Shown: positions 5,413 through 64,000, counted from the first letter of the stretch. The stretch: 64,000 nt of DNA from a candidate division WOR-3 bacterium (GCA_030606335.1 JAUWGP010000003.1:26065-90064), one strand, 5' to 3'. Program-made: numbers and translations. Notes: generated by a model not told the origin, from the sequence alone.

Positions 5413-5425
5413 TATTTCATATTTT

Positions 5426-14034: not shown

Positions 14035-14050
14035 TAGAGATTATTTTATT

Positions 14051-15526: not shown

Positions 15527-15527
15527 C

Positions 15528-15700
15528 AATGTCACGAAACAAGTCCAAATGTCACGAGAATGTCATGAAAAAGCATGTCACGAAAAGTGAGAGAATGTCA
15601 CGGAATGCGTCACGAAAAAAGTATCCACAAAGGTGGAAAATTAATTTAAGAAATGTCCCTAAAAATTAAAAATGTCCTTAATAATGTCCGAAATCAGTAA
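15528..15700. repeat. array of about 9 degenerate AATGTCAC / AATGTCC motifs
   Basis: caATGTCACgaaa, aaATGTCACgag, aATGTCAtgaaa, gcATGTCACgaaa, gaATGTCACgga, gCGTCACgaaa, then aATGTCCct, aATGTCCtta, aATGTCCgaaa, irregularly spaced 12-21 nt apart. Confidence 0.5.
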
Positions 15701-15767
15701 TCCTAAGATAGAACTTCCAGCAGGCTGGCGATGGGTGAGACTGGGCAAGAAGATAGAAATTTATTGA
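15684..15767 (+). pseudogene. hsdS: hsdS N-terminal remnant (27 codons)
   Basis: Encodes MSEISNPKIELPAGWRWVRLGKKIEIY*, matching the N-terminus of the full hsdS (ILPPDWRWVKLGEVCEF); ctggcgatgggtga is shared at the nucleotide level. Confidence 0.5.
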
Positions 15768-15774
15768 TTTATAT

Positions 15775-17581: not shown

Positions 17582-17634
17582 TGGAAATTAAACCTACTAC
17601 ATTTATCTCTGTGATATCAACAAAAATATAAGAA

Positions 17635-18702: not shown

Positions 18703-18725
18703 CCTTATACCCTAAATTATCTTAT

Positions 18726-33381: not shown

Positions 33382-35505
33382 ATGGAAACAATTATATCCA
33401 TATTAATCCTTACTACACTTATTTCTAATAATGGAAACATCGAAAATTTCCTGAACTCAAGCCATATATATAGTATGTTCCACAATGAGAACTTGATATA
33501 TTGTGCAACAAGTGGTGGTGCAGCGATTTTTGATACAAGTACAGGTAGTTTTGATAGAATTTTCACAGGCAAAGGACTTGCTAAAAATGATGTAAGAGAT
33601 ATTATTTTAGATAAATATGGCAATATTTGGTTTCTATGCTATGGTAAAGGTATATCGATTTTATCACCTAATAATATATGGAAAGAAGTAAGCGGCGAAT
33701 GGTATGAGATTCCTGAGTCGGTATTTTGTATAAATATCCTTTCTGATACTGTCCTTGTTGGAACTCACGATGGAATTAGATTATGGGACATAAAAAATAC
33801 GAACCCAATGGAAAAGACAGACAAAATGGAAAAAATCTCAACATATCCAGGAAATTTTGTAAAAAATATAATTTTTTTAAATGACACCTTATATATATGT
33901 ACTGATGAGGGAATCGGAAAGGTCACCCTGTCAAACATCGAGCATTTCTCAGAATGGAATACTATTACTGAAATTGGTAACGTTAATTCTGTTGAGATGT
34001 TAAGAGATACGTTATGGATAGCAACATCAGGTGGTATCTCATACATTAATGACGGAGATTATCATTATGTTGCCTCATATGACTCAAGAGATTTTACTGT
34101 TTGGGGTGGAAAATTATGGGTTGCGACATACAACGGACTCCGCCGATGGAATGGTACAGGATTCTCATTTACCCCAATCATAAAGGAATTAAGATGTTTT
34201 CTTCCTCTGTCCAAGCTCTGGATAGGTTCCTGGGGAGAGGGTATCTTAGAGTTTAATTACGATACGGTAATAACTCATATTCCTGAAGGACCAGGAGATA
34301 ATAGGATTGGTGATATAGCCGTTGATGAAGCTGGAAACCTCTGGAGTATTAATGGAGGATGTATGGTTTCTAAATACAATGTAGAGGAAGGTATATGGGA
34401 AATTTTCAATCTAAATAACGAGTGGAATGTACAAGGAGGCGGTTTAAGTGCGCTGGCAGTTGCAAAAGATAGTAAAGTATGGTTGGGTGTTTGGAACTGG
34501 TCTAACGAGGGACCTGCTCTTATACGACTATATCCTGATGGCACCCTCGACACCCTCTTCCGTCTTCAGGGTAACAATGTAATAAGTGATATTGCAATTA
34601 GTGATAGTAATGATGTATGGGTTTCAACATGGAAAATAGAGGGGGAAATTTCACGCCTTCGAAGATATAGGCGGGGTTCTATTGATTCTATTGATATTTT
34701 TACCTTTCCACCTGGAATTAACCGTATTACATTTGATAACCAGTTAAATACATGGGTTGGGTGTACCTATGAACTAAGTGGAGGTGTTTATAGAATAATA
34801 AATCAATCTGAAGCAGAAGAGCTCTTATGTCCCGAAATCCAGGGAGAGGAAATTCATTCTCTTGCATTTGACTTTGAGGGGAGAATATGGATTGGAACAC
34901 CAGCAGGGACATATGTGATCAGAGACGGAATCATAGAATATTTACTAACGAGCGGGGATACAGATGTGGTAGGAGACGTAGCACAAGACATCATATGTGA
35001 CATCCATGGCAACATCTGGCTATTACTCGAACCAACTCCTGGTGTTACTGAAGGGGGCTTAACAAAAGTCACAAGTAACTTTGAGTTCTCATCCATTACA
35101 CATGCAGATGGACTTCTACCTGTGAGTATAGACTACAGCAAAGGAAAAGACTATCTTGCCTATGACGCAACAAGAGGCTGGTTATGGATAGCAACCAGTG
35201 AGGGTATTTCAAGATACGACACTGGGATTACCCCCCCCTCCACAATCTTCTCGGTACTGGTCTATCCAAATCCCTTTTTAGAAGATGTACATACCTTCAT
35301 TAAGTTCTATTCTGATGATTTAATGGGGGGGAGCATAAGAATATACTCTCTTAGCGGTCAATGTATAAAAACATTCTCTAACATAAACGGAGATACACTA
35401 AAATGGATAAACCCTGTTCTTGCAAGCGGGGTTTACATATATACTGCATATGCTGGTTCTGAGAATAAAGATAAAACGATAGGAAAATTTTCAGTTATTC
35501 GTTAA
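33382..35505 (+). CDS. secreted beta-propeller (two-component-regulator-propeller, Reg_prop-type repeats) protein with T9SS C-terminal sorting domain
   Basis: Repeated W/G-rich blades (NIWFLCYGKGISIL, LWIATSGGISYI, LWVATYNGLRRW, RIWIGTPAGTYVI, WLWIATSEGISRYD). C-terminus VLVYPNPF...GVYIYTAYAGSENKDKTIGKFSVIR is the por-secretion-tail pattern. Confidence 0.7.
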   Translation: METIISILILTTLISNNGNIENFLNSSHIYSMFHNENLIYCATSGGAAIFDTSTGSFDRIFTGKGLAKNDVRDIILDKYGNIWFLCYGKGISILSPNNIWKEVSGEWYEIPESVFCINILSDTVLVGTHDGIRLWDIKNTNPMEKTDKMEKISTYPGNFVKNIIFLNDTLYICTDEGIGKVTLSNIEHFSEWNTITEIGNVNSVEMLRDTLWIATSGGISYINDGDYHYVASYDSRDFTVWGGKLWVATYNGLRRWNGTGFSFTPIIKELRCFLPLSKLWIGSWGEGILEFNYDTVITHIPEGPGDNRIGDIAVDEAGNLWSINGGCMVSKYNVEEGIWEIFNLNNEWNVQGGGLSALAVAKDSKVWLGVWNWSNEGPALIRLYPDGTLDTLFRLQGNNVISDIAISDSNDVWVSTWKIEGEISRLRRYRRGSIDSIDIFTFPPGINRITFDNQLNTWVGCTYELSGGVYRIINQSEAEELLCPEIQGEEIHSLAFDFEGRIWIGTPAGTYVIRDGIIEYLLTSGDTDVVGDVAQDIICDIHGNIWLLLEPTPGVTEGGLTKVTSNFEFSSITHADGLLPVSIDYSKGKDYLAYDATRGWLWIATSEGISRYDTGITPPSTIFSVLVYPNPFLEDVHTFIKFYSDDLMGGSIRIYSLSGQCIKTFSNINGDTLKWINPVLASGVYIYTAYAGSENKDKTIGKFSVIR

Positions 35506-35634: not shown

Positions 35635-36801
35635 ATGCTGTTCAACTTTAAGGACATACTACGCTCCATGCGGCTTGGCTTTTCTGCCAAAAAGATATGG
35701 GTTGGGTTCCTTGGCATCCTTATTGGAACCATATTATATTCGATACTCTCATATGTAGCATTTACTCTATCACCAGACTGGAATTGGATTGAGGTTTGGA
35801 GAGAGTATAGGTTTATCCCTGTCCCAATAATAGGTTACACATTAATGCCATGGTTTAGTTGGTTAATATGGGGAGTTGGTATTGCATTCTTTGTTTTCAT
35901 AAAACTACTTGCAATTGGTGCAATATCTAAGATAACATACGAACAGCTTAAGGGAGACGAGTTCTATGAGGTCACCGAGGGAATCAAGTTCTCACTGAAG
36001 AAGTGGAAGGCTATAATATTATCTCCTATAACACTTATTATAATAACCGCTGTTATACTTCTATGTGGATTTATTTTTGGTGTGGTTGGCAGGATTCCTT
36101 ATTTTGGACAACTTGCAATTGGCATTCTCTTTATACCTATAGCTCTTGGTGCCCTATTTCTTGTATACCTTACTGTGGTACTTTTCCTTTCATTTCTTAT
36201 TGCACCCTCTGTTGTTGCCACCACCAAAAGCGATACATTTGATACACTGTTCGAGGTCTTCAGTGTACTCAATGACCAGACATGGAGGCTGGTAGTCTGG
36301 GAGATATTGGTGGCGTTTCTTTCTCTTGCTGGCACAACGATATTAGCCTTGTTTACAAAGAAGGCCTTCAGGCTTACCTATTTTGCTATTTCTTTCTGGC
36401 AGGGTCCAAGGGAATGGTTTGAAGTAATGTGGAACAATGCATTATGGTATCTACCATCCTGCCCTCCCGTTATCTGGACTGAGAATATTATAGGTAGATT
36501 TCTACCTACACTCCTTCTTCCTCATACATGGGCAACCCAGAACTGGGCAACTACATTTGGTGGTTTCTGTGTCGGAATAAGCTTTCACTTAGTTGCAATT
36601 TTCGTACTCGCCTATGGTTTATCTATATGGAGTGTTGGACAGACGATGATATATACTGTCCTTGTTAAAATGAAGGACGATAAAAACCTCCTTGAGGTAA
36701 AAGAAGAAGAGTTTGAAGAAGAGTTTGAAGAAGAAAAGGAGGAGAAGTTAGAAGAAGAAAAAGAAGAGAAATCAGAGGAAGAAAAAGAAGAAAATAATTA
36801 A
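35635..36801 (+). CDS. polytopic membrane protein with poly-Glu/Lys acidic C-terminal tail
   Basis: At least 8 predicted hydrophobic helices. C-terminus EEEFEEEFEEEKEEKLEEEKEEKSEEEKEENN. AAAGGAGG Shine-Dalgarno upstream. Confidence 0.55.
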   Translation: MLFNFKDILRSMRLGFSAKKIWVGFLGILIGTILYSILSYVAFTLSPDWNWIEVWREYRFIPVPIIGYTLMPWFSWLIWGVGIAFFVFIKLLAIGAISKITYEQLKGDEFYEVTEGIKFSLKKWKAIILSPITLIIITAVILLCGFIFGVVGRIPYFGQLAIGILFIPIALGALFLVYLTVVLFLSFLIAPSVVATTKSDTFDTLFEVFSVLNDQTWRLVVWEILVAFLSLAGTTILALFTKKAFRLTYFAISFWQGPREWFEVMWNNALWYLPSCPPVIWTENIIGRFLPTLLLPHTWATQNWATTFGGFCVGISFHLVAIFVLAYGLSIWSVGQTMIYTVLVKMKDDKNLLEVKEEEFEEEFEEEKEEKLEEEKEEKSEEEKEENN

Positions 36802-43691: not shown

Positions 43692-45167
43692 TTATTTGCT
43701 AGTCTTCACAAATTTCACTGCCTTAATATAATCCTCAGAACATCTTACTCCAATAATTTTCTCTTTTAATCTCTTAATAATTTCTTCTTGTTTCATAAAA
43801 CCGAATTCTCCATCAATCTTATATCCTTCGGAGAGAATCTGCTGCATACTATTTTCGTATTCTTCAACAATATCATATGTACCCCTATATCTTATAATAA
43901 ACCACACCTCATCTAACTTAGTGATTCCCATGAGCGAATCAAGTTTATCTACACCAAGGTATGTATCCAACTTTGTACTTCCATAGAACCGAAATGGAAA
44001 TTCTGCTGTCATTACAATCGAATTATCGCTTGCTTCTTCTTCTACAGTTTCTACAATCTCTCTCCAGGGTACGATATATGCTTGATTGTGGAAATGCCTT
44101 ACCGTGTAGTAATTGAAAAGTCCATATAGATTACAGCAGATCAATAGAAAAAGGAGTGTATTACCAAATTTGGTTTCTTTTACACCTGCTGCTACAATAG
44201 TATAGGCAATCGGTGCAAGAAAAATTAGTCTGCTGGAAGAAAATGGAAAAAGTATTTGGGCAAATACAGTTGAAAGAGCAGTTGTACCAATAATAAGTGG
44301 AAGAATAAAAAAGGAAAAAGAGTATTTAGGATACCTCAGCATCCCCTTGAAGAATAGAAAATAGAATATCACTATAGTCGGTAGAGCAATAAAGAATTCC
44401 CATAGAAATATCGTCTCACCAATAGAGTAAGAGTATAGTGGATATAGCAATTTAAGGAAAAAATCTAAAGGAAGGTATGTTAAATTTCCTCCGATATGTA
44501 GAAAAAGAAGAACATAAATCCATGGAAGAAAGAGAAATACCACGATTGATTGCATAAATATCCATGTAGATAGACTGACTACCCTCTTTTCTTTCTTCTT
44601 GATAAGAAAATAAACGTTTTCTGCTACAAATAATATAACTCCTGGGTAAGCTGTATACAAGAGTAGAATATTGGACACACAGTAAAGCAATTTCCACCTT
44701 CTTTCAGGTCTCTTTATAATTTCGAGAAGTGATATTATAGACAAAACACCAAAAAACATCATAAGTGAGTAATATCTTCCCATTCGTGAATACATTACTA
44801 TGAATGGTGATGACATAAATAATAATAAGGATGAAATACCCAATTTACTCTTCTTGAAGTAGAAAAACATAAGAATGAGTGTTAACATAGAGAATACAAT
44901 GGAAGGGAATCTCAAAGCAAATTCACTTTGACCAAATGGAATCATCCAGAAATGAATAAAAATATAGTACATCGGGGAATGAATATCTATTACAAGGAGG
45001 TGTTTTAATATCTGTGATAACGGTTTTGATGCAACAATTATTGTACCTATCTCATCCCCCCAGAAGGCAAGGTTACCCAGTCTATAAATGAGTAACATGA
45101 AGAATACAATTATTAATAACCATTTATACCCCTCTATCTTATGAACCGATGATAAGAATTTATTCAT
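43692..45167 (-). CDS. GT-C fold membrane glycosyltransferase (ArnT/PMT-like, polyprenyl-phosphate-sugar dependent)
   Basis: About 11 TM helices. Acidic WGDE motif in the first extracytoplasmic loop. C-terminal soluble domain. Confidence 0.5.
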   Translation of the reverse strand: MNKFLSSVHKIEGYKWLLIIVFFMLLIYRLGNLAFWGDEIGTIIVASKPLSQILKHLLVIDIHSPMYYIFIHFWMIPFGQSEFALRFPSIVFSMLTLILMFFYFKKSKLGISSLLLFMSSPFIVMYSRMGRYYSLMMFFGVLSIISLLEIIKRPERRWKLLYCVSNILLLYTAYPGVILFVAENVYFLIKKKEKRVVSLSTWIFMQSIVVFLFLPWIYVLLFLHIGGNLTYLPLDFFLKLLYPLYSYSIGETIFLWEFFIALPTIVIFYFLFFKGMLRYPKYSFSFFILPLIIGTTALSTVFAQILFPFSSSRLIFLAPIAYTIVAAGVKETKFGNTLLFLLICCNLYGLFNYYTVRHFHNQAYIVPWREIVETVEEEASDNSIVMTAEFPFRFYGSTKLDTYLGVDKLDSLMGITKLDEVWFIIRYRGTYDIVEEYENSMQQILSEGYKIDGEFGFMKQEEIIKRLKEKIIGVRCSEDYIKAVKFVKTSK

Positions 45168-45179
45168 AAATCTCCTCCC

Positions 45180-46619
45180 TTATTTCATATAATCCTTTGT
45201 ATTTCTTAGTAGGAATATGGAGATGCCATTGCATTCCTTTATCTTTTCATAGCCCATTTCTCTTAATCTAAAAAACTCTAAGTCTTCATCATCAATTACA
45301 TCTACTATTAACCGGGGTTTATAACGTTGTAAAAGATTAGGGATATCTTCATAGGTAATAAGGTGATATCTCTCCCTTAATCTTGGAGCCACATTCTCAC
45401 TTACGTCATAGTTCGGTATCGCAAACTCAGGAACAGTTTCTCTGTCTGCCAGAAATCCAAAATAGAATCCAAAGGAAACTACCTTGTCATCCTTTTCTGT
45501 AACTGCTTCAATAGCCCTGGTTACATCTCTTATATTTGAAATTATATATTTCTTCTGCCATTCTCTTACATTAGAGAAATACATAAGAGAGCACGGAATG
45601 TAGGATGTTATGTATAAGATAAGAAGCCATTTGCTCCATGTTTTTCTTTTTAGATAACCAATATATGGTACAAGTAAGAATAAAAGAAATGGATAAATCT
45701 CTGTCATATAGCCGAAATGCGTAGGAGTAAGTATGAAATAGTATACTATAAAAAGAACTACAGCACAAATTAATGCCAACAATTCCTCTCTTCTCATTTT
45801 TCTCCACTTAATAGCTATTGCAAGTAGTATAAAAAGCACAATATTTGATGGAAAAAAGACAACCTTGGCAAGAATTAGGAATCTGTGGGTTATAAACCAA
45901 TAAAATGAAGGGGTAGTTCTGTTGAAATGATATAAAAAGTTACAGAAAAGAAAACAATCCGTATATTTAAAAAAATAATACAATGATGGAATAATACCAA
46001 GAACAAAACCAGCAACTGTATAAAGTATCATCTTCCACTCTCGCCTAAAGAGAAGAAGAATAATCGTAATAATAAGTAATACAATAAATATTGAGCGAAA
46101 ACTCACTGAAAGACCAATACAAATACCAGAAAGCAAAGAATATATACACCTTCTTCTCTTCAGGGAAAAGGAAAATAAAATAAGAAATAGAATATTTAAT
46201 AAATTCACCCAGGCTCTTTGTGTTGCCTGGATGGAGTTGTAGAAAAGCACTGCGTTACCTGTCCAGAGTATACCCATATAAACGGTCTCCTTCTTAGACT
46301 TATTAATATAAAATGTATATAGAAGGAGGATAACACCTGAGATAAGAGCAATAAGGGAAGATGATATTCTGGCGAGAAAGAAATTAGACCAACCACCACC
46401 AGAAAAAGGCAGAAAGACTAAAGCTGAGAGCGGCATCTGAGGGAAGAAAAAATCTTTATATAAGTGCATTCCTCTCGATATTAGTCTTGCTGCGGGAAAA
46501 TAATAGCTCAATTCATCTGTGAAAACATTTTGTATAAAGACAAGAGCAATAAGAATACTACCACTTATAATACAGTATAATATAATAAATTTGGATATGC
46601 TATTTCTACTTTGTTTCAT
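45180..46619 (-). CDS. GT-C-like polytopic membrane glycosyltransferase, paralogue 1
   Basis: 479 aa. TDELSYY acidic motif after TM1. About 85% identical to the 46901-48331 product. Confidence 0.5.
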   Translation of the reverse strand: MKQSRNSISKFIILYCIISGSILIALVFIQNVFTDELSYYFPAARLISRGMHLYKDFFFPQMPLSALVFLPFSGGGWSNFFLARISSSLIALISGVILLLYTFYINKSKKETVYMGILWTGNAVLFYNSIQATQRAWVNLLNILFLILFSFSLKRRRCIYSLLSGICIGLSVSFRSIFIVLLIITIILLLFRREWKMILYTVAGFVLGIIPSLYYFFKYTDCFLFCNFLYHFNRTTPSFYWFITHRFLILAKVVFFPSNIVLFILLAIAIKWRKMRREELLALICAVVLFIVYYFILTPTHFGYMTEIYPFLLFLLVPYIGYLKRKTWSKWLLILYITSYIPCSLMYFSNVREWQKKYIISNIRDVTRAIEAVTEKDDKVVSFGFYFGFLADRETVPEFAIPNYDVSENVAPRLRERYHLITYEDIPNLLQRYKPRLIVDVIDDEDLEFFRLREMGYEKIKECNGISIFLLRNTKDYMK

Positions 46620-46639
46620 TAAAATCCCTTAAGGATTTT

Positions 46640-46760
46640 CTAATTTATTTCTATGTGTTTTAAGAAGTTGGTGGTGGGTCTAAGCTGTTTTCATAGCAAT
46701 CCTGTCCCAAGAAAAATACTATTTGACAAACCCTTTATCACTACGAGATAGGGTTTCTTT
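46640..46760 (-). pseudogene. degraded 3' fragment of the GT4 glycosyltransferase gene (duplication scar)
   Basis: The reverse complement reads ETLSRSDKGFVK*YFSWDRIAMKTA*, against the intact C-terminus ETLSHKGKKLVKEYFSWDRIAVKTAETYQQL of the 48342-49526 gene. Confidence 0.5.
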
Positions 46761-46900
46761 TTTATTTTTACCCTTTAATAAATGTATAAGAAAGTCAGTT
46801 CTGCAGCATTTTATCACTGATTGTATTAAAAATTAATTTTATTTACCTTTCTGGGTTCCTATGGAAAGTAAGTAAAATTTACAAACTTATCTTTTATATC

Positions 46901-48331
46901 TCAATCACCAACTAATAAAAGCGATATACCCCTGTAATCTCCTATTTTCTTATAACCTAATTCCTTTAACTTAAAGTATTCTAATTCTGTCTTATCAATC
47001 ACATTTACTATTAGCCTGGGTCTATAGCGTTGTAAAAGCTGCGGGATGTCCTCATAAGTAGTAAGATGATACCTTTCCCTCTGTTTTGGACTTATATCCT
47101 CGCTTATGTCGTGAAGATAAAAAGCAAGTTCTGAAACAGTTTTTCTTTTCGCCAGAAATCCAAAATAGAATCCAAAGGAAACTACCTTATCATCCTTTTC
47201 TGTAACTGTTTCAATAGCCCTGGTTACATCTCTTATATTTGAAATTGAATGCCCCTTTTGCCAATCTCTGATGTTAAAGGAATACATTAAAGAGCACGGT
47301 ATATATGATGCAATATAGACAATTAGAAGCCATTTACTCCATGTTTTTCTTCTTAGATAACAGATATAGGGTACAAGTAAGAATAAAAGAAATGGGTAGA
47401 CCTCAGTCATATAACCGAAATGTGTAGGGGTAAGTAAGAAATAGTAAACTATAAAAAGGACTGCAGCACAAATTAATGCTAACAATTCCTCTCTTTTTAT
47501 TTTTCTCCACTTAACAGCTATTGAAAGTAATATAAAAAGCACAATATTTGATGGAAAAAAGATAACCTTGGAAAGAATTAGAAATCTGTGGGTTACAAAC
47601 CAATAAAATGAAGGGGTAGTCCTATTAAAATGATATAACAAATTACAGAAAATAAAATTATCCGGATATTTAAAAAAGTAATATAATGAAGGAATGACAC
47701 CAAGAACAAAACCAGCAACTGTATATAGTATCATTTTCCACTCTCGCTTAAAGAGAAGAAGAACAATCGCAATGATTAACAGTATTACAAATATTGAGCG
47801 AAAACTCACTGAAAGACCAATACAAACTCCAGAAAGTAAAGAATATATACATTTTCTTCTCTTTAAGGAAAGGGAAAATAAAATAAGAAACAGAATATTC
47901 AGTAAATTCACCCAGGCTCTTTGTGTTGCCTGGATGGAGTTGTAGAAAAGCACTGCGTTACCACTCCACAGGACACCAATATAAATAGTATCTCTCTTAG
48001 ATTTATTAATATGAAAGGTATATAGAAGAAGGATAACACCTGATATAAGTGTAAGTATGGAAGAAGATACTCTGGCGAGAAAGAAATTTGTCCATCCACC
48101 ATTTGAAAAAGGCAGAAAGACTAAAGCTGAGAGTGGCATTTGATTAAAGAAAAAATCTTTATATAATTTCTTTCCTATTGCTATTAAAGATGCTGCAGGA
48201 ATATAAGTACTTAATTCATCCGTATAAACATTTTGAGTAAAGATAAGAGCGACAAGAATACCTCCACTTATGATGCAGAATAATATGATAATTTTAAATA
48301 TGCTATCCTGACTTCGCCTCATGAAAACCAT
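46901..48331 (-). CDS. GT-C-like polytopic membrane glycosyltransferase, paralogue 2
   Basis: 476 aa, collinear with paralogue 1; even the antisense ORF shadows match (46205-46399 and 47908-48102). Confidence 0.5.
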   Translation of the reverse strand: MVFMRRSQDSIFKIIILFCIISGGILVALIFTQNVYTDELSTYIPAASLIAIGKKLYKDFFFNQMPLSALVFLPFSNGGWTNFFLARVSSSILTLISGVILLLYTFHINKSKRDTIYIGVLWSGNAVLFYNSIQATQRAWVNLLNILFLILFSLSLKRRKCIYSLLSGVCIGLSVSFRSIFVILLIIAIVLLLFKREWKMILYTVAGFVLGVIPSLYYFFKYPDNFIFCNLLYHFNRTTPSFYWFVTHRFLILSKVIFFPSNIVLFILLSIAVKWRKIKREELLALICAAVLFIVYYFLLTPTHFGYMTEVYPFLLFLLVPYICYLRRKTWSKWLLIVYIASYIPCSLMYSFNIRDWQKGHSISNIRDVTRAIETVTEKDDKVVSFGFYFGFLAKRKTVSELAFYLHDISEDISPKQRERYHLTTYEDIPQLLQRYRPRLIVNVIDKTELEYFKLKELGYKKIGDYRGISLLLVGD

Positions 48332-48341
48332 TTAAAGATTT

Positions 48342-49526
48342 TCAACTAACTACTGTGTGTTTTTTAACAAGTTGTTGGTAGGTTTCGGCTGTTTTTACAG
48401 CAATCCTGTCCCAGGAAAAATACTCTTTGACGAGCTTTTTACCCTTATGAGATAAAGTTTCTCTTAATTTCATGTCCTTCAACACATGTATAATCTTTTG
48501 TGCAATTTGCTCCTGATTTTGAGGGTCAATGAGCACTGCACTTCCTTCAATCAATCCAACGACATCCCTTACTGGACCAATATCTGATGCGATAACAGGA
48601 ACTCCAAATGCCATAGCTTCAATTAGCACTATCCCTTGAGTTTCGTAAAGTGTTGGGAAAACAAAAATACTCGCCTTTTTATATAACTCGTATATTTTCT
48701 GTCTTGGTAGGGGTCCAGTAAACTCTATATTTGAGGTTAGGTTGTTTTCCTTTATAAATTTCTGCAGTGAGTTAAAATAACCTTTTTCATCTACAGGTCC
48801 AGCGAAGATAAACATCGTATCAGGAACTTCTTTTAAAACACCTATAGATGCCCTTACTAAAGCTAACTGATTTTTTCTCCTGCAAATTCTTGCAGGGTAC
48901 ATCACAATATGTCTTTTTTCCCTGTTAGATTTATTATAATTAATATATTCCTTTATTTTTTCTACCTCTAATCCATAGTGTATCGAAGTAATTTTCAAAG
49001 AATTTAATCCAAAATGAGACACAAGTGTGTTCTTTACGCTTATAGTGGGGGTAAATATGTGGTCAATCCTCTTAAGTAGTATAGACTCTGCTATGTGCTT
49101 TATCCTGTTTAAAAGTGAGGGGTTGAGTATAAACTTAGTGTTATGAGTGGTATATAATATAACTATATGCCATTTGAAAATACTCTTTGCAATCAGTACA
49201 AACAAACCTGCAAATTGTGAGTGACTATGAATTATATCTACAGGCTTCTCTTTTAATAAGTAGTATAATTTAGGTATTGTACTATAGGCAAATGAGAGAA
49301 CCTGTAATAATGGGTGAACATCACATAGGGAGGGTATCTTTACCTCACAGAAAACAATTCCTGTTTTTCCTCTATCTATATTCGATTTTATATCGATTAT
49401 ATCAACACTATTTCCATATTTAACTAGCTTCTTAGAAAGTTCATATATTGCATTCTCTACGGCACCGACACCAATAGGTGGGATAGACATAATACCCGTA
49501 CCAATATGGACAATATTCATTCCCAT
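48342..49526 (-). CDS. GT4-family (group 1) glycosyltransferase
   Basis: GT-B C-terminal motif E...GIVLIEAMAFGVPVIASDIGPVRDVV; 394 aa. Confidence 0.8.
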   Translation of the reverse strand: MGMNIVHIGTGIMSIPPIGVGAVENAIYELSKKLVKYGNSVDIIDIKSNIDRGKTGIVFCEVKIPSLCDVHPLLQVLSFAYSTIPKLYYLLKEKPVDIIHSHSQFAGLFVLIAKSIFKWHIVILYTTHNTKFILNPSLLNRIKHIAESILLKRIDHIFTPTISVKNTLVSHFGLNSLKITSIHYGLEVEKIKEYINYNKSNREKRHIVMYPARICRRKNQLALVRASIGVLKEVPDTMFIFAGPVDEKGYFNSLQKFIKENNLTSNIEFTGPLPRQKIYELYKKASIFVFPTLYETQGIVLIEAMAFGVPVIASDIGPVRDVVGLIEGSAVLIDPQNQEQIAQKIIHVLKDMKLRETLSHKGKKLVKEYFSWDRIAVKTAETYQQLVKKHTVVS

Positions 49527-49592: not shown

Positions 49593-52500
49593 CTATCTGA
49601 TATATACAAGTTTAGATGTTTTAAGTTCGCCCTCTGTATCGAGAACAATAAAATAGACCCCATTTGCAACCTTGTTTCCGTTTTCACCTACTCCACTCCA
49701 TTTTAATGTATAAGTTCCACCCTCTCTGGGCTCGTCAAGAAGTGTCTTTATGACTCTGCCACATACATCATACACTTTTATCTTCACATGTTTAATAGAG
49801 GATATTTGATACCTTATATCAACTATTCCTCTCATGGGATTAGGATAAGGTGGAAAAATACAGTCTATATACGGAAAGTCCATAGTAACTTCTGTAATTT
49901 CAGGTATAACAAATCCGTAAAGTCCTGTGTTCCATCTATCATGTCTTGCTGAGCCCCATTCAATACTATCTCCCTCAACCTCCCATACGTATAAATAAGT
50001 TCCCTGATAGTTAGTCACCAGAAGTTCATTCATACCGTCGTCATCTATATCATCAATCACAGGAGACCTCTTTATGTTATGGTATGTCTGTACTGGAAAG
50101 CCCGGCGTGAATGAACCATCTGCCTCTATAGAATATACAGCGCCATCTGTTCCTCCAACAACCACCTCCATGTTACCATCACCATCAACATCGGCTATCA
50201 GGGGTGGAGATGCAGGGAGTGCATCTCTATGTCTCATCCTCAAGTGAACAGGCCAACCTGAAAGTAACATTCCTTCTTTATTCCATGCAGTAACCTGATC
50301 AAAACACACCATTACTATATCAGGTTCGCCATTACCTGTTACATCACCCACTGCAATACCAGGTCCCTCAGATGGAGGAGGAGAATATTCCTGTGGCCAT
50401 CCTGTTAGTGGTCTGCCAAACCTATTCAAAACCCACAACTTTTCTTCTGTAGCTGTAATAATCTCAAGTCCATCCATCTTTAAGTCTATATCTGCGATTG
50501 ACGGGTTCACTATGACATCAGCCTCAAGCCATACAGGAAAGCTGTCAATTACCTCTCCTTCAGGATTCCATACATAAAGGCTGTCTCCACCTGCAATTAT
50601 CTCAAGTGTGTCATCTCCATCTATATCGGCAATAGAAGGTGAAATTAAACTTGGGTTGACTCCAACATTAGAAAAAAGGTTCACACTCCCTGTATGCTCA
50701 ATTAAATATATATTTCCAGAAAAGGTGAGAACAATAATCTCAAGAAATCCATTGCCATATATATCTTGCAGAACAGGTGAACCAATAAGACCAACTCCTG
50801 CATCAGGTAGTAGTACAGGGAAACCCTGTTCAATCTGCCCCTCTCCATTAAAAACATATATTGAACAACATGAGGAAGCCCAAAATGGTGCAATTATAAT
50901 CTCCTCCTCTCCGTCTGCATCAATATCTCCTACAGCTGACCTGCCCCATACAGGATATTCTACATTAGCAAATTCTTCCTCATCTAAAAGCGTAGAACCA
51001 TCACAATGCCATCCATAAAGTCGACCATCATCACACCCACAAAAAACCTCTTTCCCGGTATGAGTTTTATCTATATCTGCGCAGACTACTACCCAGAAAG
51101 GCTTTTCCTTTGGTCCCTTCTTGGGCCATCCGGTTTTCATCACGGGATTTGTCTTGCCATAAATATGAGCTGATAGCCCACTTTCATTCATAAAGGAATC
51201 TATTGCACTTACTCTGTAGTAGTAGCCTGTCCATGGTAAAAGACCCTGATCGAGTAACATAGAATTTTCACTCTGTATAATTGAGTTTAATTTAATATAT
51301 CCAGTTTCTTCTACACCACTCCTGTAGATGTTGTATCCAATAGCATAATCTACAGGTTGCCAGAAAATTCTCATGCTTGTCTCACCTGGAAAGACATATA
51401 AACCCTCCGGAGGTAGTAAATTCCTTACTATAAAAGTATCCACCCATGTCCTGTCTAATCCATCTATCACCACAATACTAAAGATTGAATCACCTCCTGT
51501 ATAGGAAAATGCATCTTCTATTAGAAGGAGTGTATCGGGTTCAAATAAATCGATATTATATATACTATCAATTATATTGCTGGAGCTCAATGTTGCTGTC
51601 AGACTCTCTACCTCTCCAAATCCTGAATTCCTTAAAACAATTGACATAGAGAAGGTATCTGTTGATATTTCATTTATACTATGTCCATAGTGAAAAATCT
51701 CTGGATAATAAATATAAAGTAGGGTAGAATCCCTTGAACTCAATGTGTCATTATAATAAATATTAAAGGCAAGATATACTATAGGATCTTCCATCTCCTT
51801 GTTTATAAGAATGGTTGCAATAACTGTATCACTCTCACCTTGAGAGAGGTCCTTCATAATAAATAATGTATCTATCAGGTTGACAAGCGTGTCATTGGTA
51901 TAACCTTTTGCAGATATATTCCAGGCATCTGAACCACCACTATTCATAAACTCACATAAAAACGAAATAGAATCACCTGAAGATAAAATCTCAGGCGAGA
52001 AATCCTTAATTATAATATAAGGTTGCTCGGGTTCTACATACAGCTCACCCTCATAAGGTATATAATTATGTGCTGTCACAACAATCGATAGCATACCCTC
52101 TACCTCTGGTGTCAGCTCAAATGAGGCAACGCCGCTTTCATCTGTATATGCAGTGGCATATACATTCTCGTTTGATACACATATATAGGCACCTGAAAAA
52201 GGAAATTCATCATCGGTTACATATATATCAAATATCTGTTGTCCAACATCCACTGTGTCATCGTAGACTACAGATAATGTGTCAGGAAAATCCGTCCAGA
52301 GGTATATCTCAGGGTCTCCCAGATAATTAAGTGCATAGTTCTCCCATCTCCACCAGACCCCAGTTCCTCCAGTTATCTTGGATGCTGCATCTGCCTCTGC
52401 TGGAGAGAATAGAGAGTCGGTAAAAATAGCCTTAAAGAATGCTCTATTTATAGGTCTGGAACATTCGGGAAAGTCTGACCTTGTTGAGGCAATTATCCCA

Positions 52501-53987
52501 ATTCCACCGCCAAGGTTGCTCTCAATGTAATGTGCACAGAAGTTGTCTGAATCATAGGAATTTGTCCAACATGTTGTTAGATACATAAATCCAGATGGGT
52601 TTATCAGTGAATCCCAGTCACTTCTCCAGATAGGTGGCCATCTGGAGAGCATAACCCTTAGATCTTCGATGTACCCATGACATACAGCATACACCATATT
52701 ATAACCGGTTACGATTGAATCCAGAAATTCCTCTCTTGTGGGATATCCATAATACTCATACATCTTGCTAACAGTAAAATCATCTGGCAACTCATCTGCT
52801 ATATCCTCACAGTGTTCCATTCCATCTAAACCCCATTCTCCATTACCTGAGAAGAGCTCTGAACCTACAAGCATAATCTTCTTCTGATAGCCATATAGGG
52901 GAGATTTTTCGTATAAAAGGAGTTTTTCAACAAGACTCTCTGCTCCTTCCCTGGTTTGTACAGGTAATCTTCCTATAAATACATCATATCCCATATCGAC
53001 GTCATCCTCAGACTCGCCAAATATTCCATTGTCATTTGCATCCCAGTCTCCATCAAGACAGGCATAATACATATCAGTTGGTATCAGTTCACCTAAATTA
53101 TACTCTGCCTGAATGAATGCATACCTCACTGGTATTATATTTATACCTCCCCCAATTACTATATAACATAACCCCCACTTCTGGTACGCATCCTTTATAA
53201 AGTTTCTTATCTTCTCAGATACATCACATCCTGTATAGTATGACTCGATCCATTCCAGAGTCCTAATGGTCGACCTTACTCCCTTTCTTGATTTCCAGTA
53301 TATTAGCGGCATAAAGGATTCTTTCAGTGAATCGCTGGTTATAAGACATAGGTCTATCCTATCAGAGGTGTAACTTGGTAACTCTGTCTCGCTTTTCATT
53401 TTTAAAACTGAAAATCTTTCTTTACAATTCTTAGACCAATCACTCTCAAATATTGATAGAAACCTGTTAATTCTCTCTCTTGTGTAAATGCTTCTTTCTG
53501 GAGAGACAACGTATACTGGTTTATAACTGAATGAGAAATCAATATTCTGAATAAATGAAATACTGCTGTCTTCAGGATGATAAAGCAGTGGGTGAACTGC
53601 TATAGTAACTATTCTTTCACCAAAATATACATCCTCCCTTTTTATCTCAACTATAGAAGACGGATATATATCTGCACATTCTAATGAAATAAATGGTCCC
53701 TCTTCATTGTCAAGCCTTTTATATGGTTGAAAGGGATAGGGTATGAACTTGCCATCGAGTGATATCATCATTATATTTTCCAATCTTACTTTAGAGATTG
53801 CCATGCCATGCGGCATGACAAAATGAAGAAGTCTTTCAGGTAGTTCAGGTTGACCTACCTTCTCAGTTTTAGTACATCCACACATGGATATTCTATCGTA
53901 ACAACCCTGCTTAAGGATTGTTAAATCTCCTATATCGAAGGTCAGAGTGGTAGTAAATAATGAAATCGTTATGAAGATGCTTATCAT
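49593..53987 (-). CDS. C25 (gingipain-like) cysteine peptidase with Fn3 domain, FG-GAP/VCBS repeats and T9SS C-terminal sorting domain
   Basis: C25 core (LCLITSD...WKSRKG...IVIGGG...DMYYACLDGDWD...FIGRLPV); catalytic His (AVCHGY) and Cys (YLTTCWT); Fn3 (IFWQPVDYAIGYNIYRSG); repeated DIDADGEEEI / DVDGDGNMEV / DIDDDGMNEL FG-GAP units. C-terminus PYPNPM...KWSGVGENGNKVANGVYFIVLDTEGELKTSKLVYIR. Confidence 0.7.
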   Translation of the reverse strand: MISIFITISLFTTTLTFDIGDLTILKQGCYDRISMCGCTKTEKVGQPELPERLLHFVMPHGMAISKVRLENIMMISLDGKFIPYPFQPYKRLDNEEGPFISLECADIYPSSIVEIKREDVYFGERIVTIAVHPLLYHPEDSSISFIQNIDFSFSYKPVYVVSPERSIYTRERINRFLSIFESDWSKNCKERFSVLKMKSETELPSYTSDRIDLCLITSDSLKESFMPLIYWKSRKGVRSTIRTLEWIESYYTGCDVSEKIRNFIKDAYQKWGLCYIVIGGGINIIPVRYAFIQAEYNLGELIPTDMYYACLDGDWDANDNGIFGESEDDVDMGYDVFIGRLPVQTREGAESLVEKLLLYEKSPLYGYQKKIMLVGSELFSGNGEWGLDGMEHCEDIADELPDDFTVSKMYEYYGYPTREEFLDSIVTGYNMVYAVCHGYIEDLRVMLSRWPPIWRSDWDSLINPSGFMYLTTCWTNSYDSDNFCAHYIESNLGGGIGIIASTRSDFPECSRPINRAFFKAIFTDSLFSPAEADAASKITGGTGVWWRWENYALNYLGDPEIYLWTDFPDTLSVVYDDTVDVGQQIFDIYVTDDEFPFSGAYICVSNENVYATAYTDESGVASFELTPEVEGMLSIVVTAHNYIPYEGELYVEPEQPYIIIKDFSPEILSSGDSISFLCEFMNSGGSDAWNISAKGYTNDTLVNLIDTLFIMKDLSQGESDTVIATILINKEMEDPIVYLAFNIYYNDTLSSRDSTLLYIYYPEIFHYGHSINEISTDTFSMSIVLRNSGFGEVESLTATLSSSNIIDSIYNIDLFEPDTLLLIEDAFSYTGGDSIFSIVVIDGLDRTWVDTFIVRNLLPPEGLYVFPGETSMRIFWQPVDYAIGYNIYRSGVEETGYIKLNSIIQSENSMLLDQGLLPWTGYYYRVSAIDSFMNESGLSAHIYGKTNPVMKTGWPKKGPKEKPFWVVVCADIDKTHTGKEVFCGCDDGRLYGWHCDGSTLLDEEEFANVEYPVWGRSAVGDIDADGEEEIIIAPFWASSCCSIYVFNGEGQIEQGFPVLLPDAGVGLIGSPVLQDIYGNGFLEIIVLTFSGNIYLIEHTGSVNLFSNVGVNPSLISPSIADIDGDDTLEIIAGGDSLYVWNPEGEVIDSFPVWLEADVIVNPSIADIDLKMDGLEIITATEEKLWVLNRFGRPLTGWPQEYSPPPSEGPGIAVGDVTGNGEPDIVMVCFDQVTAWNKEGMLLSGWPVHLRMRHRDALPASPPLIADVDGDGNMEVVVGGTDGAVYSIEADGSFTPGFPVQTYHNIKRSPVIDDIDDDGMNELLVTNYQGTYLYVWEVEGDSIEWGSARHDRWNTGLYGFVIPEITEVTMDFPYIDCIFPPYPNPMRGIVDIRYQISSIKHVKIKVYDVCGRVIKTLLDEPREGGTYTLKWSGVGENGNKVANGVYFIVLDTEGELKTSKLVYIR

Positions 53988-54079
53988 AATAAAAAATTAG
54001 TTATTGGTTTACCCTGCCTGCCATATTTAATGTTTCACTTTATTACATTATGGCTTGTCCTGTAGCACAGTGTACAGGG

Positions 54080-54165
54080 TGAAATGCGAACTTGTGAGCT
54101 ATTTCATCAGGGTCATTAGTTTACCCTATGAAATGTGAACTCGTGAGCTATTTCATTGGGGTCAT
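54080..54165. repeat. tandem about 49-bp duplication, each unit carrying an ATGAAAT/ATTTCAT hairpin
   Basis: gtgaaatgcgaacttgtgagctatttcatcagggtcattagtttaccct followed by atgaaatgtgaactcgtgagctatttcattggggtcattgggctattcc. Confidence 0.5.
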
Positions 54166-55097
54166 TGGGCTATTCCCAACCTCCTTGGTAAATACATGGC
54201 AGCAAGGTCCACTGTTCTCTGACAGTTTAACCAACATCGATTACATCGGGTAAATGAACGAATCGCTTCTTTTGTCTTTCTATCTCTCCATATCTGTCCG
54301 AAACTTCTCTTATGTAGATTACCAAGCTTTATTTTCCTTGCCTCACACAGTTCAACATCACCATTTGGTTTTATTACCGGTCTAACATATATACTAAGGC
54401 AGGGAAGGTTTAACCTCCTATTTGCCCATAGAGAATAAAGGCTGTAATAATCTGAAGTAAACATATCCGATACATCATAGAGTTCTAATACTTCTCTTTC
54501 TATACCGAAATATTCAACAAAAGAGAAGTATCCAACACTGAGTCCAATATTGTGACTTTTGGTAAAATCAAGTACAAACTCCAAGTCCTCTTTTGTGTTC
54601 CATTTACTTATTGTATATTCAATCTCAATACTGCTGAACTCCTTAATTTCATCAACAATTTTCTCGACGTTCCTAAATGTATCTATACCCCTTATATACT
54701 TGTTGGTTTCAGGTTTTCCATCAAGTGAAACTGAGACATATTTCACCTTTTCGTCCTTTACAAGCGAAATCAGTTCATCTACTAAGATTCCGTTCGAAAA
54801 AACCCTTATATTTTTCCCTCTGAAAAGGGATACAATCTCTCTGCATTCAGGATGAAGGAGAAAATCACCACCTGTGATAATAAATTCCATATCATCTCCA
54901 ATTTCATCATCCGCTAATAGCATTTCAATTATAGACTTATCCAGGTCAATTTTTTCTACCATTCTCCATATATTACAGGTCCTACATCTCGATGTACATC
55001 TATTAGTTATATATATAGGCATGGAGAGAATTCGTCTTCTCCTTATCGAATAAATAAGCCTTGAGAGATTAAACGCTTTATTAAAAAATCTATCCAT
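54162..55097 (-). CDS. radical SAM enzyme with C-terminal SPASM/twitch-like Cys cluster
   Basis: CTSRCRTC (CxxxCxxC) near the N-terminus. C-terminal CEARK...CNRCWLNC cysteine cluster. The start may be the internal ATG at 55022. Confidence 0.75.
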   Translation of the reverse strand: MDRFFNKAFNLSRLIYSIRRRRILSMPIYITNRCTSRCRTCNIWRMVEKIDLDKSIIEMLLADDEIGDDMEFIITGGDFLLHPECREIVSLFRGKNIRVFSNGILVDELISLVKDEKVKYVSVSLDGKPETNKYIRGIDTFRNVEKIVDEIKEFSSIEIEYTISKWNTKEDLEFVLDFTKSHNIGLSVGYFSFVEYFGIEREVLELYDVSDMFTSDYYSLYSLWANRRLNLPCLSIYVRPVIKPNGDVELCEARKIKLGNLHKRSFGQIWRDRKTKEAIRSFTRCNRCWLNCQRTVDLAAMYLPRRLGIAQ

Positions 55098-61498: not shown

Positions 61499-62040
61499 AT
61501 ATATAAAGAGTTTTTGTAAAAATTTTTCTTCAATCTACTAAAAATATATAGGGGGTGAGGATTTATGAGGTGAGATGATTGGAGATTATTTATACCTGGT
61601 ATTTCCATGGTTTTTTGACCACTGACTACGCAATCTGAGTAAAAATCACTATAAAATAGATAAAATTACTGTTATATTTCCCATTCTTACCAAAAGAATC
61701 ATTATAGTACTTCCTCGTTAAGGATTGAAAAATTCACTCACCTTTGATCTTACAAACTAACTATAAATTTCAAGCAGCTTAAATCTCCTACCACATTTTT
61801 CTAAAATCTTCTACTATACTCAAAAAAATTCTTTACTCTATAGAAGTTTGGTTCGTATATTTTCTATTACTTACACGCAAAAAGTAATGAATTAGAAAAA
61901 AGTAAAGAGCTCTTATAAAAAATTATAGAGGATCACTATAATATAGGGAGTAAAGTTTCACAAAAAAAGAGTTTAAGCTATCTTCTATTGTATTCAAATT
62001 AGGAAAATTTACAATACAAGCTCTTTGAAAAGGAGGACAA

Positions 62041-64000
62041 GATGAAGAGTGTAAAGATATTTCTTGTAATGCTACTCGTAGGTACTATTACAAGTGGCAT
62101 ATACGCAAGACCGGTTGAAGTGTACCTCCTGCCGTCCAGTCCTGGTGAACCAAGTAAAATGATATCGCCTGATAAGCCCTCAGGCGAGTGGCTAATACAG
62201 TATGACGGCGGAGAAGGTATTTGGTATCTCATAGGACTCTTTCCCGGCGATACACTGGGTGTTTTTTTTACACCACCTGCAGCCTGTTCTCTTGTTGAGG
62301 TGCACTTCTGCAAAAAGAGATGGGGTGACGAAAGTGGTCCAACTCAATACTATGGTATTGCTGCTTATGTACCAGGAGGTGTAACACTTGATGATTATGA
62401 TGAATATCACTCCGATGCATCTATGCCTGGTCCAAGCTGCATTGGTACTATTCTTGCTGGACCCACTGCATTGGATATTAATGCTTTTGATGAGTTCGAG
62501 TGGGACACCCTTGATGTGCCTGGTAATCCTGATATAGGCACGAACAACTTCTGGGCTGGAACGACAATAGAGGATACAACGCATTCAACGAGAATAGATG
62601 CAACTGTGGACCCTCCACATCGTGCGATATGCTATAAGCAGGGAGGTACCGGACCAGAGACTAACGGTCCCGGTTGGTACTCCTCATGGCACCTCTTCTG
62701 GGTGAGGGCACTTGTTAGGGTATATGAGAACATCCCTCCTATTGTTGATGCTGATGCGTTGCTGGGAACATATGACACAAGTGACAGAACTGTGTATATC
62801 TACACAGAGGACTTTGGTCCAGTAGCTCCAGGAATTGATGAAATATACCTGTATTATTACTTAGAAGGGAAAACTGATACTCTTGCAGCTATTATGGTTC
62901 AGGATTCAGTCCTCACAGAAGGTAGTTTTGAATATGCATGGTGGCATGCAGATATACCCGGACAGTCGGCTGGATCAGTTGTACATTATTGGGTCGAATG
63001 TACTGATAATGAAGGTGCCGACGGCTCATCAGGCGAATTCTCCTATGGTGTAGGCGCAGGTACATCTGGATATGGTCTTTTATACGTGGAAAGTGATGAT
63101 GTATATGGAGATGTGGGTGTGCACGATGCATTTGGTGCTTTTTTATGGGATGTATGGTACGAATCGACCAATGGCGTCGCTGACAATACCGTAACAGACT
63201 TCTATATCAGTGGGGCTGGTGTAAAGGCGGTTTCATGGCTCAGTTTTTCAAGCTATAGTTTTGCCAACTGGTCCTTCACTCAGGCATTTAGTGACTTCAT
63301 GGATAATGGAGGATGTGTATTTATTTCCTCAGAAGATGTGGTTGGTAGTGGCTATGGTTTAGGATATGGAGGGTGGTCAGCACCATCACCACACCCACTC
63401 AGGGACTATCTAAAGGCCTATACAGGCACCGATGATTACATCACCACATCACCATTCACATTGTATGTTGAAAATACTGATTTCCTGACAGCGGGTATGC
63501 AAGATGAGCTGACAGTTGACTGTGATTCTATTGGACCCGGCACCTGGGTTGGTATATTCACAGACATTGATGCCAACTGCGTTCCTCTGTTTTATGACGG
63601 TGAAGGCAACATCCTGGGATATAGGTATGAGTCATCTAAGGGTTTTAAGGTTGTGTTTCTTTATTTTCCGTTTCATGGTATAACCTCTACAGACGACCAG
63701 GATGAATTTATATCTAACATCACTGGCTGGTTTGGTGTCGGAGCAGACATCACTGTATCTCCCGATTCTTTATACATTATAACACCCATAATAGTTACTG
63801 ATTCTTTCTGGATTGGAAATTTGGGTTCTGTTTCGCTTTCTGTAGACTCTATAACCCATGCTGCTACATGGATTACTGATATCTCACCAACAAACTTCAC
63901 AGTTGACTCAGGGGATTCTACTCCTGTGTATATAACGATGGATCCAGACTCCTTTGTATTGGGCGTTTTTGTAGGTAAAGATACACTCTGGATATGGTCT
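62041..64000 (+). CDS. large secreted protein, N-terminal about 650 aa (3' end lies outside the window)
   Basis: AAGGAGG Shine-Dalgarno at 62030-62036. Signal peptide MKSVKIFLVMLLVGTITSGIYA. Frame 1 appears open to the window end by my manual translation, and no long ORF exists on either strand here in the supplied track. No motif recognised. Confidence 0.5.

Follow-up and report, generated by a model that had tools for sequence, protein, structure and literature searches.

A predicted secreted gingipain-type peptidase with a beta-propeller, and a dispersed hairpin repeat upstream of its gene, in a candidate division WOR-3 bacterium

We analysed 64,000 nucleotides (nt) of DNA from a candidate division WOR-3 bacterium (GCA_030606335.1, JAUWGP010000003.1:26065-90064), hereafter the window, in which a reading of the sequence alone (the original prediction) had picked out a gene for a gingipain-like peptidase of family C25 at 49593-53987. 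This gene probably encodes the secreted zymogen of a cysteine endopeptidase of clan CD, family C25, which carries a beta-propeller and a tail for secretion by the type IX system (T9SS) and is likely to act in extracellular protein degradation; the hairpins upstream of it are probably copies of a repeat of the lineage. From its N to its C terminus, the protein consists of a prodomain, a disordered linker, a caspase-like catalytic domain, an immunoglobulin (Ig)-like domain, two CARDB-like domains, an Fn3 domain, an eight-bladed propeller and a sorting domain (Table 1). Its open reading frame (ORF) lies on the minus strand and runs intact from ATG to stop over 1464 aa. The ORF call, Pfam and TIGR04183 bear out the C25 protein with FG-GAP repeats and a T9SS tail that the original prediction had described at this place. 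The ORF, the domain matches and the upstream repeat are not chance features.

The catalytic domain carries the family assignment. Peptidase_C25 (PF01364) matched residues 214-561 at 146.4 bits (cut-off 23; E 1.7e-42), with profile positions 2-372 of 374 covered. A single-sequence phmmer search of the PDB reached only the prodomain of Kgp, so we built family alignments and profiles. A profile of 13 full-length homologues matched RgpB at 9e-30, and a profile of 40 homologues matched RgpB at 1.4e-40, Kgp at 1.7e-34 and PorU (6za2) at 1.4e-25. The original prediction had proposed a His/Cys dyad within the motifs AVCHGY (residues 434-439) and YLTTCWT (residues 469-475), and its validity hinged on the alignment of these residues to the catalytic positions of C25. 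Both residues aligned to them in three independent alignments, made with hmmalign to the family hidden Markov model (HMM), with the family profile against the PDB and with hhalign. In the family-HMM alignment of RgpB with the query, RgpB His211 was paired with His437, Gly212 with Gly438, Cys244 with Cys473 and Glu152 with Glu377, and hhalign supported the same catalytic mapping at 99.6% probability. In the profile-PDB alignments, the His-Gly pair of the family stood opposite YTGHGSE of RgpB (His211) and YTAHGSE of Kgp (His444), and the Cys stood opposite DVACVNG of RgpB (Cys244) and the second Cys of GNCCITA of Kgp (Cys477); residue numbers of RgpB and Kgp were checked by counting along the chains in the alignments. 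His437 and Cys473 were invariant among 13, 40 and 31 homologues (alignments A1, A2 and A7), and Cys473 was invariant in alignment A6 too. On sequence grounds we assign the protein to peptidase family C25 (gingipains), clan CD. We also tried to read its P1 specificity from the acidic S1 residues that set the Arg or Lys preference of the gingipains, RgpB Asp163 and Kgp Asp516, and dropped the attempt because the three alignments conflict: RgpB Asp163 lay opposite Met390 in the hmmalign alignment, adjoined the conserved Asp388-Gly389 in the profile alignment and fell in a gap with hhalign, and Kgp Asp516 sits in an insertion that the family is without in the profile alignment.

Structure prediction, which the original prediction had named as a way to check its claim, recovered the gingipain fold. 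An AlphaFold2 model of residues 1-960 had a mean predicted local distance difference test (pLDDT) score of 86.2, with disorder confined to residues 1-9, residues 183-201 and the cut end. In a Foldseek search of the PDB, the top matches were Kgp (4rbm, 6i9a) and RgpB (4ief, 1cvr), at E values of about 1e-22 and target-normalised template modelling (TM) scores of 0.74-0.83; the best was 4rbm (E 2.8e-22). These matches, at 17-18% identity and a root-mean-square deviation of 3.7-4.9 A, take in the catalytic alpha/beta domain together with the Ig-like domain. On the Ig-like domain, Peptidase_C25_C gave a weak, sub-threshold Pfam score of 17 bits.

Consistent with a zymogen, a gingipain-type prodomain precedes the catalytic domain. 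Propeptide_C25 scored 20.8 bits in the single-sequence Pfam search, slightly below its cut-off of 22. The Kgp prodomain (5mun) was matched at E 0.006 by the single sequence and at 1.6e-14 by profile, and the RgpB prodomain at 5.8e-9 by profile. The region was modelled as a beta-sandwich with pLDDT 84-96. The disordered linker that joins it to the catalytic domain is, by analogy with gingipains, a candidate region for prodomain cleavage. An N-terminal extension of the protein is ruled out by a TAA codon in frame 12 nt upstream of the ATG. The hydrophobic start of the protein, MISIFITISLFTTTLTF, is kept in its two deposited WOR-3 relatives, which are 1464 aa long at 98% identity (P0001) and 1463 aa long at 63% identity (P0002, WOR-3 JGI_Cruoil_03_44_89). 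More distant homologues have longer, classical signal peptides, and the WOR-3 members are shorter at the N terminus. The other sorting-domain protein of the window begins alike (33382-33430, plus strand), with the hydrophobic METIISILILTTLIS, which is also without Lys or Arg. Signal peptides that lack basic residues may be a habit of this lineage, or else the starts may be mis-called.

The region between the Ig-like domain and the C terminus is built of modules that may serve in binding. The CARDB-like region was modelled as all-beta with pLDDT 80-90, and both of its domains carry a conserved N-x-G-x-x-x-A motif (N682/G684 and N787/G789), as is typical for CARDB; Pfam detected CARDB in 4 of 31 family members, but not in the window protein. 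The Fn3 domain scored 16.8 in the single-sequence Pfam search, below the cut-off of 25, and the family profile matched Fn3 domains of titin (E 6e-21) and fibronectin (2e-6). For the propeller, FG-GAP_3 (PF13517) scored 63.1 bits against a cut-off of 26.9 and FG-GAP (PF01839) 36.8 against 22.1. Eight Asp-rich units of the D-x-D-x-D-G type start at residues 971, 1021, 1075, 1121, 1166, 1215, 1266 and 1313, at a spacing of about 48 residues. Canonical loops are found in four of the blades (DIDADGE at 1021, DIDGDD at 1121, DVDGDG at 1266 and DIDDDG at 1313), where they are predicted to be of the calcium type; the other four are degenerate. A second AlphaFold2 model, of residues 861-1464 (pLDDT 86.0), showed the Fn3 domain, a closed propeller, a disordered linker at about 1362-1372 and a terminal beta-sandwich. 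Foldseek matched the propeller to the eight-bladed BamB, the designed protein Ika8 and ITFG2, and profile searches matched it to integrin alpha-V, ITFG2, CRTAC1 and PL11 lyases. The order of Fn3 domain, propeller and sorting domain given in the original prediction thus holds in the Pfam matches, the model and the repeat units.

The C-terminal sandwich was recognized as a T9SS sorting domain by two curated models, TIGR04183 (32.7 bits against 23) and Por_Secre_tail (PF18962; 29.7 against 27), which place it at residues 1381-1461 of the 1464. It carries YPNPMRG, NGVYFIVL and a terminal KLVYIR, and forms a beta-sandwich in the model. FlgD_ig scored 30.7 bits (cut-off 27) on the residues of Por_Secre_tail. 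The 98% identical relative is annotated by NCBI as carrying a T9SS type A sorting domain.

By analogy with the gingipains, Sec would carry the protein across the inner membrane, the prodomain would keep the protease latent by blocking its active site, and the sorting domain would route it over the outer membrane, where it may be released or anchored at the surface; removal of the prodomain would then activate it. The beta-sandwich domains may form a rigid stalk which, together with the propeller, could serve to bind a ligand or substrate, keeping the protease on a polymeric substrate or on the cell surface. Its role would most likely be the nutritional degradation of extracellular protein.

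The closest characterized systems share parts of this arrangement. RgpB (gingipain R2 of Porphyromonas gingivalis, MEROPS C25; 1cvr, 4ief) has the same inhibitory-type prodomain, two-subdomain caspase-like catalytic domain, Ig-like domain and sorting domain, with common His-Gly and Cys columns and an equivalent, Glu152, of Glu377 in the window protein. The two proteins are about 18% identical in the structural alignment, and the window protein has about 730 extra residues between its Ig-like and sorting domains. RgpB belongs to a pathogen of the Bacteroidota, whereas the host of the window protein is an uncultivated environmental WOR-3 bacterium, in line with the uncultivated lineage that the original prediction had supposed. 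Kgp and RgpA, like the window protein, have large non-catalytic modules for binding and a sorting domain behind their C25 unit, but these modules are haemagglutinin/cleaved-adhesin domains where the window protein has its propeller; no such domain was among its Pfam matches at E <=0.1. The NCBIfam model NF052323 (T9SS-dependent M6-like inactivated metalloprotease) has the module of FG-GAP propeller and sorting domain in common with the window protein. It matched residues 1211-1460 over profile positions 789-1036 of 1043, with 117 bits in all against a cut-off of 600; its N-terminal enzyme domain is M6-like, whereas that of the window protein is C25.

Environmental proteins that combine C25, FG-GAP and sorting domains are colinear with the whole of the window protein, to which they are 24-63% identical, and agree with it in the order of domains and in the invariant His and Cys; one of those at 24-30% identity is a Candidatus Krumholzibacteria protein named "C25 family cysteine peptidase". 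A HMMER search with residues 1-1200 against 1.84 billion cluster representatives returned 1895 proteins at E <=1e-30, and by our count from the result table about 60 of the best 150 representatives were colinear from the catalytic domain into the propeller. Among 31 sampled relatives, with domains counted at E <=1e-3, Peptidase_C25 and FG-GAP_3 were present in all 31, FlgD_ig in 20 and Por_Secre_tail in 12. The architecture is found again in dozens of environmental protein clusters formed at 50% identity. The original prediction had called it a non-standard gingipain arrangement; it does differ from that of P. gingivalis, which has the haemagglutinin domains, but because it recurs in so many environmental clusters it is non-standard by that comparison only, and it is not rare. 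The protein is an ordinary member of a large environmental C25 family that is biochemically uncharacterized, and a near-identical sequence is already deposited with an automatic annotation. One 1.1-Mb metagenomic contig encodes two tandem C25 and FG-GAP paralogues of 1621 and 1612 aa (L005, 2825-7690 and 8001-12839). In White Oak River sediments, C25 enzymes were reported to be the most abundant predicted exported peptidases (PMC6752024). A literature search for C25 with FG-GAP brought up nothing relevant. The architecture is common in metagenomes, and the protease adds nothing new in kind; what the analysis provides is a map of the domains that can be given with confidence, together with the catalytic residues, for a large subfamily of gingipain relatives that is biochemically untouched and probably of importance for protein degradation in anoxic sediments, as well as predicted T9SS-type cargo in WOR-3, a phylum outside the usual T9SS list.

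The repeat family found upstream is more unusual than the protease. Two 49-nt units, 54069-54117 and 54118-54166, stand there in tandem; they are 82% identical, and each contains an inverted repeat. The tandem hairpin duplication that the original prediction had noted upstream of the C25 gene is therefore real, but it is not specific to this gene and belongs to a dispersed, lineage-wide repeat. In its 55-nt short form, a closing stem (ACCCYG/CRGGGT) surrounds the hairpin TGAAAT-N15-ATTTCA, the loop of which, AGCTCACAAGTTCGC, is almost invariant. Longer forms hold one or two additional hairpin modules, each beginning with CCCTGT, that lie nested in the closing stem, past the hairpin and ahead of the 3' arm; the observed inserts measure 0, 26-27, 33, 60 or 63 nt, consistent with such modules. 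The folding energy of short forms is -16 to -17.5 kcal/mol (z about -3.5); of the copies in the window, the degenerate copy 1 folds at -10.5 kcal/mol (z -1.7) and copy 2 at -27.9 kcal/mol (z -2.39). By our tally of 29 distinct copies, pair 4 of the closing stem was T-A in 13, C-G in 4 and mismatched in 12, and pair 5 was G-C in 24, A-T with both sides changed in 2, G-T in 2 and mismatched in 1. Pairing in the closing stem is favoured but not strict.

We scanned 185,579 species genomes with the core TGAAATAGCTNACNAGTTCNCATTTCA and found 18 loci, all of them in five WOR-3/Stahlbacteria genomes, with 2-5 loci per genome as counted by the exact core in draft assemblies. A scan of metagenomes with a 19-mer of the loop alone gave 18 stretches, about half of which were loci already found with the core. 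The window holds no further copy, and nhmmer with the core found no additional copies in the window or the loci. All copies lie between ORFs, usually starting 6-40 nt past the preceding stop codon, and several are at contig ends. At 14 of 19 loci the element and the gene downstream of it point the same way; at the other 5 that gene is on the opposite strand. These downstream genes are functionally unrelated: mlaE and secA (two genomes each), ftsZ, yjeF, a POR subunit, a phosphoribosyltransferase, an eRF1-like gene and the C25 gene. The flanks of the repeat bear arrays of (A/T)ATTGAC-like octamers. A second hairpin family (GATTTATCCCGTGGAATGCG...AGCTATTCCATCGGGAC), with a stem resembling that of the first, adjoins copies of the first repeat on WOR-3/Stahlbacteria contigs (L016 at about 5390-5430, L020, L022, L023 and L028). 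Rfam gave no match to the repeat at the gathering threshold or at E <=1, apart from one at chance level.

Repetitive extragenic palindromes (REPs) and bacterial interspersed mosaic elements (BIMEs) of proteobacteria are short imperfect palindromes that are strictly intergenic and multi-copy, often follow a stop codon and form modular mosaics. The WOR-3 repeat is likewise palindromic, intergenic, present in several copies per genome and mosaic, and shares no sequence similarity with them. Unlike REP/BIME, it has a nearly invariant 15-nt loop, is almost identical across species and occurs in few copies (2-5 per draft genome). Neither a Y1 transposase nor a REP-associated tyrosine transposase was found among the ORFs of the window, to which the search for the latter was confined. 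We read the element as a lineage-specific, REP/BIME-like intercistronic repeat. The family, which Rfam does not hold, could be of use in annotating WOR-3/Stahlbacteria genomes and could account for contig breaks in the assemblies.

Several observations weigh against secretion of the C25 protein by the route proposed above. The hydrophobic stretch at its N terminus spans only 15-17 residues and contains no basic residue, and because residues 11-16 already fall in the prodomain, in the model as in the alignment to Kgp, the signal peptide is a putative one. No core T9SS gene (porK/L/M/N, sov/sprA, porV or porU) was found among the roughly 45 ORFs of the 64-kb window. In favour of the route, a review lists T9SS as a possibility for several FCB superphylum members other than Bacteroidota, at the level of phyla; it does not mention WOR-3 (PMC11285876). 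NCBI taxonomy puts WOR-3 (Caldifarciminota) outside the FCB group, and a literature search found no paper linking WOR-3 and T9SS. Alternatively, the protein could be an active C25 peptidase that is not exported by T9SS, its C-terminal sandwich being a FlgD-Ig-like or other binding domain and the organism using another route or having no T9SS. The slightly higher score of FlgD_ig than of Por_Secre_tail on the same residues, the presence of Por_Secre_tail in only 12 of the 31 family members and the results just given on core T9SS genes in the window and on papers linking WOR-3 and T9SS would fit this explanation. We nevertheless consider it unlikely, since TIGR04183 and PF18962 each exceeded their curated cut-offs, the domain stands at the extreme C terminus with the typical PNP, GxYF and K-x-x-x-R motifs, NCBI annotates the 98% relative in the same way, and a second protein of the window has the same tail together with partial similarity to PorZ. 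A further possibility is that the protein is itself a part of the machinery, namely the PorU-type sortase of the lineage or another component of T9SS attachment, which would cut sorting domains and link cargo to a surface glycan made by the neighbouring glycosyltransferases instead of degrading protein. PorU is C25-like and ends in a sorting domain, the family profile matches it (see above), and the gene lies between a polysaccharide flippase and modification cluster and genes for GT4 and putative GT-C-like enzymes, in an order that is kept at the 63% orthologue. This assignment is nonetheless very improbable. The PorU equivalog of NCBIfam (NF033707) scored 57 bits against a cut-off of 420, the gingipains reached 142 bits by profile against 93 for PorU, and the Foldseek TM scores were 0.76-0.83 for gingipains and 0.17-0.19 for PorU, a poor overall fold match. 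Moreover, the window protein has the gingipain-type prodomain, the glycosyltransferase neighbourhood is not kept around more distant homologues, and some genomes carry tandem paralogues, unlike what is expected of a single-copy machinery gene. A secreted C25 zymogen with a T9SS tail remains the reading that we prefer for the protein.

As for the hairpins, they might have formed a dedicated cis-regulatory leader of the C25 gene, such as a riboswitch-like element or an attenuator. The leader is nearly identical in the 98% relative and about 90% conserved in the relative whose C25 protein is just 63% identical, where it comprises two complete 82-nt units; it folds better than shuffled controls (z -2.43), and the elements are oriented along transcription. 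The distribution of the element largely refutes this idea, and we give it almost no credence: because copies adjoin mlaE, secA, ftsZ and other unrelated genes, in five genomes, the repeat is not a dedicated regulator of the C25 gene. The downstream genes that lie on the opposite strand, the usual start shortly after the stop codon of the preceding gene and the Rfam result argue in the same direction. Given the near-invariance of the loop and the retention of copies at orthologous sites, a sequence-specific function remains conceivable. In a bolder version of this idea, which we hold to be rather doubtful, the hairpins would represent a structured intercistronic element that is new to description in WOR-3/Stahlbacteria and comprises the closing stem P1, the hairpin P2 with its loop and optional nested hairpins, and kept at orthologous sites before C25, mlaE and secA. 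Rather than a selfish REP, it would be recognized by a sequence-specific protein or RNA partner and would control processing, stability or termination of the transcripts of housekeeping operons. As a separate point, the C25-propeller proteins would then indicate that T9SS-type export works in a phylum for which it has so far not been discussed. A lineage-specific repeat is the reading of the hairpins that we retain.

Table 1 Features of the C25 gene and its upstream region (window coordinates)
Feature	Position	Strand	Basis or remark
Complete gene: C25 peptidase, propeller and sorting domain	49593..53987	-	ORF call; full-length 98% and 63% identity to WOR-3 proteins P0001 and P0002
Residues 1-17, MISIFITISLFTTTLTF, presumed atypical Sec signal	53937..53987	-	Short hydrophobic N terminus with zero basic residues
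Gingipain-type prodomain, residues ~11-180	53448..53957	-	Matches to Kgp and RgpB prodomains; model
Disordered linker containing Lys/Arg, residues 183-201, DWSKNCKERFSVLKMKSET	53385..53441	-	pLDDT <50
C25 catalytic domain, residues 205-561	52305..53375	-	PF01364; profile matches; Foldseek
Catalytic His437, followed by Gly438	52677..52679	-	Aligned to RgpB His211 and Kgp His444
Catalytic Cys473	52569..52571	-	Aligned to RgpB Cys244 and Kgp Cys477
Ig-like domain after the catalytic domain, residues 565-650	52038..52295	-	Profile and fold alignment to the Ig superfamily domain of RgpB/Kgp
Two CARDB-like beta-sandwiches, residues 655-760 and 762-856	51420..52025	-	Model; motif
Fn3 domain, residues 859-946	51150..51413	-	Profile matches; beta-sandwich in both models
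Eight-bladed FG-GAP-type beta-propeller, residues ~950-1350	49938..51140	-	Repeat units; model; Foldseek
Type A T9SS C-terminal sorting domain, residues 1381-1464	49596..49847	-	TIGR04183; PF18962; model
Repeat copy 1, 55-nt short form, slightly degenerate	54113..54167	-	Overlaps the stop codon of the radical SAM gene
Repeat copy 2, 118 nt: closing stem P1, conserved hairpin P2, two nested hairpins	54001..54118	-	Ends ~14 nt before the C25 start codon

The second sorting-domain protein of the window is encoded by the 707-aa ORF 33382-35505 (+), in which a T9SS type A sorting domain scored above its cut-off and Reg_prop propeller motifs are present. Its match to the PorZ model was partial, with 99.8 bits (cut-off 260) over profile positions 12-360 of 757, and a single-sequence search matched no PDB entry. 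Judging from these matches, it could be a PorZ-like component of the attachment complex or merely another propeller cargo. The 388-aa ORF beside it, 35635-36801 (+), was considered as PorV and rejected, as its product is a polytopic membrane protein with a long, acidic, Glu/Lys-rich C-terminal tail and matched no family or PDB entry.

The window is chromosomal WOR-3 DNA with the housekeeping genes uvrB, nusA, infB and thiC and a gene for phosphoenolpyruvate carboxykinase; its G+C content is 0.371, and that of the C25 gene is 0.388. Upstream of the C25 gene, 54162-59740 (-) is a glycan- or lipid-modification cluster that encodes a radical SAM/SPASM protein, an FAD-binding protein, a class I methyltransferase, a Wzx-type flippase and an acyltransferase of the malonyl-CoA-acyl carrier protein type. 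Directly downstream, 43692-49526 (-) encodes a GT4 glycosyltransferase and, after it in tandem, three polytopic proteins of 476-491 aa, of which one has a weak match to GT87, one a weak match to PMT_2 and one none; their sequences suggest GT-C-like enzymes. The order of C25 gene, GT4 gene and membrane protein gene, with rbfA-infB-nusA nearby, is kept at the locus of the 63% orthologue, where one such polytopic protein is retained, and the loci of three more distant homologues showed nothing similar around the C25 gene. We considered the glycosyltransferase and radical SAM neighbours as a conserved functional unit with the peptidase and rejected this; because the order is shared by two WOR-3 relatives only, we treat it as synteny of the lineage. 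Promoter and terminator consensus scans around the C25 gene gave matches at chance level.

Elsewhere in the window, G+C rises to as much as 0.44 at 62001-64000, against about 0.36-0.37 in the remainder; this stretch had no Rfam match, and its sole complete ORF (62192-62584) had no Pfam match. An 846-aa protein encoded at 22162-24702 (+) contains two stretches of transglutaminase core and no further recognized domain. A type I restriction-modification system (HsdR, HsdS and HsdM) occupies 10785-20231 (+), interrupted by a RadC-like gene, a DUF4062/HATPase_c_4 gene and two unannotated genes, and is followed by a Fic/DOC gene at 20813-21859.

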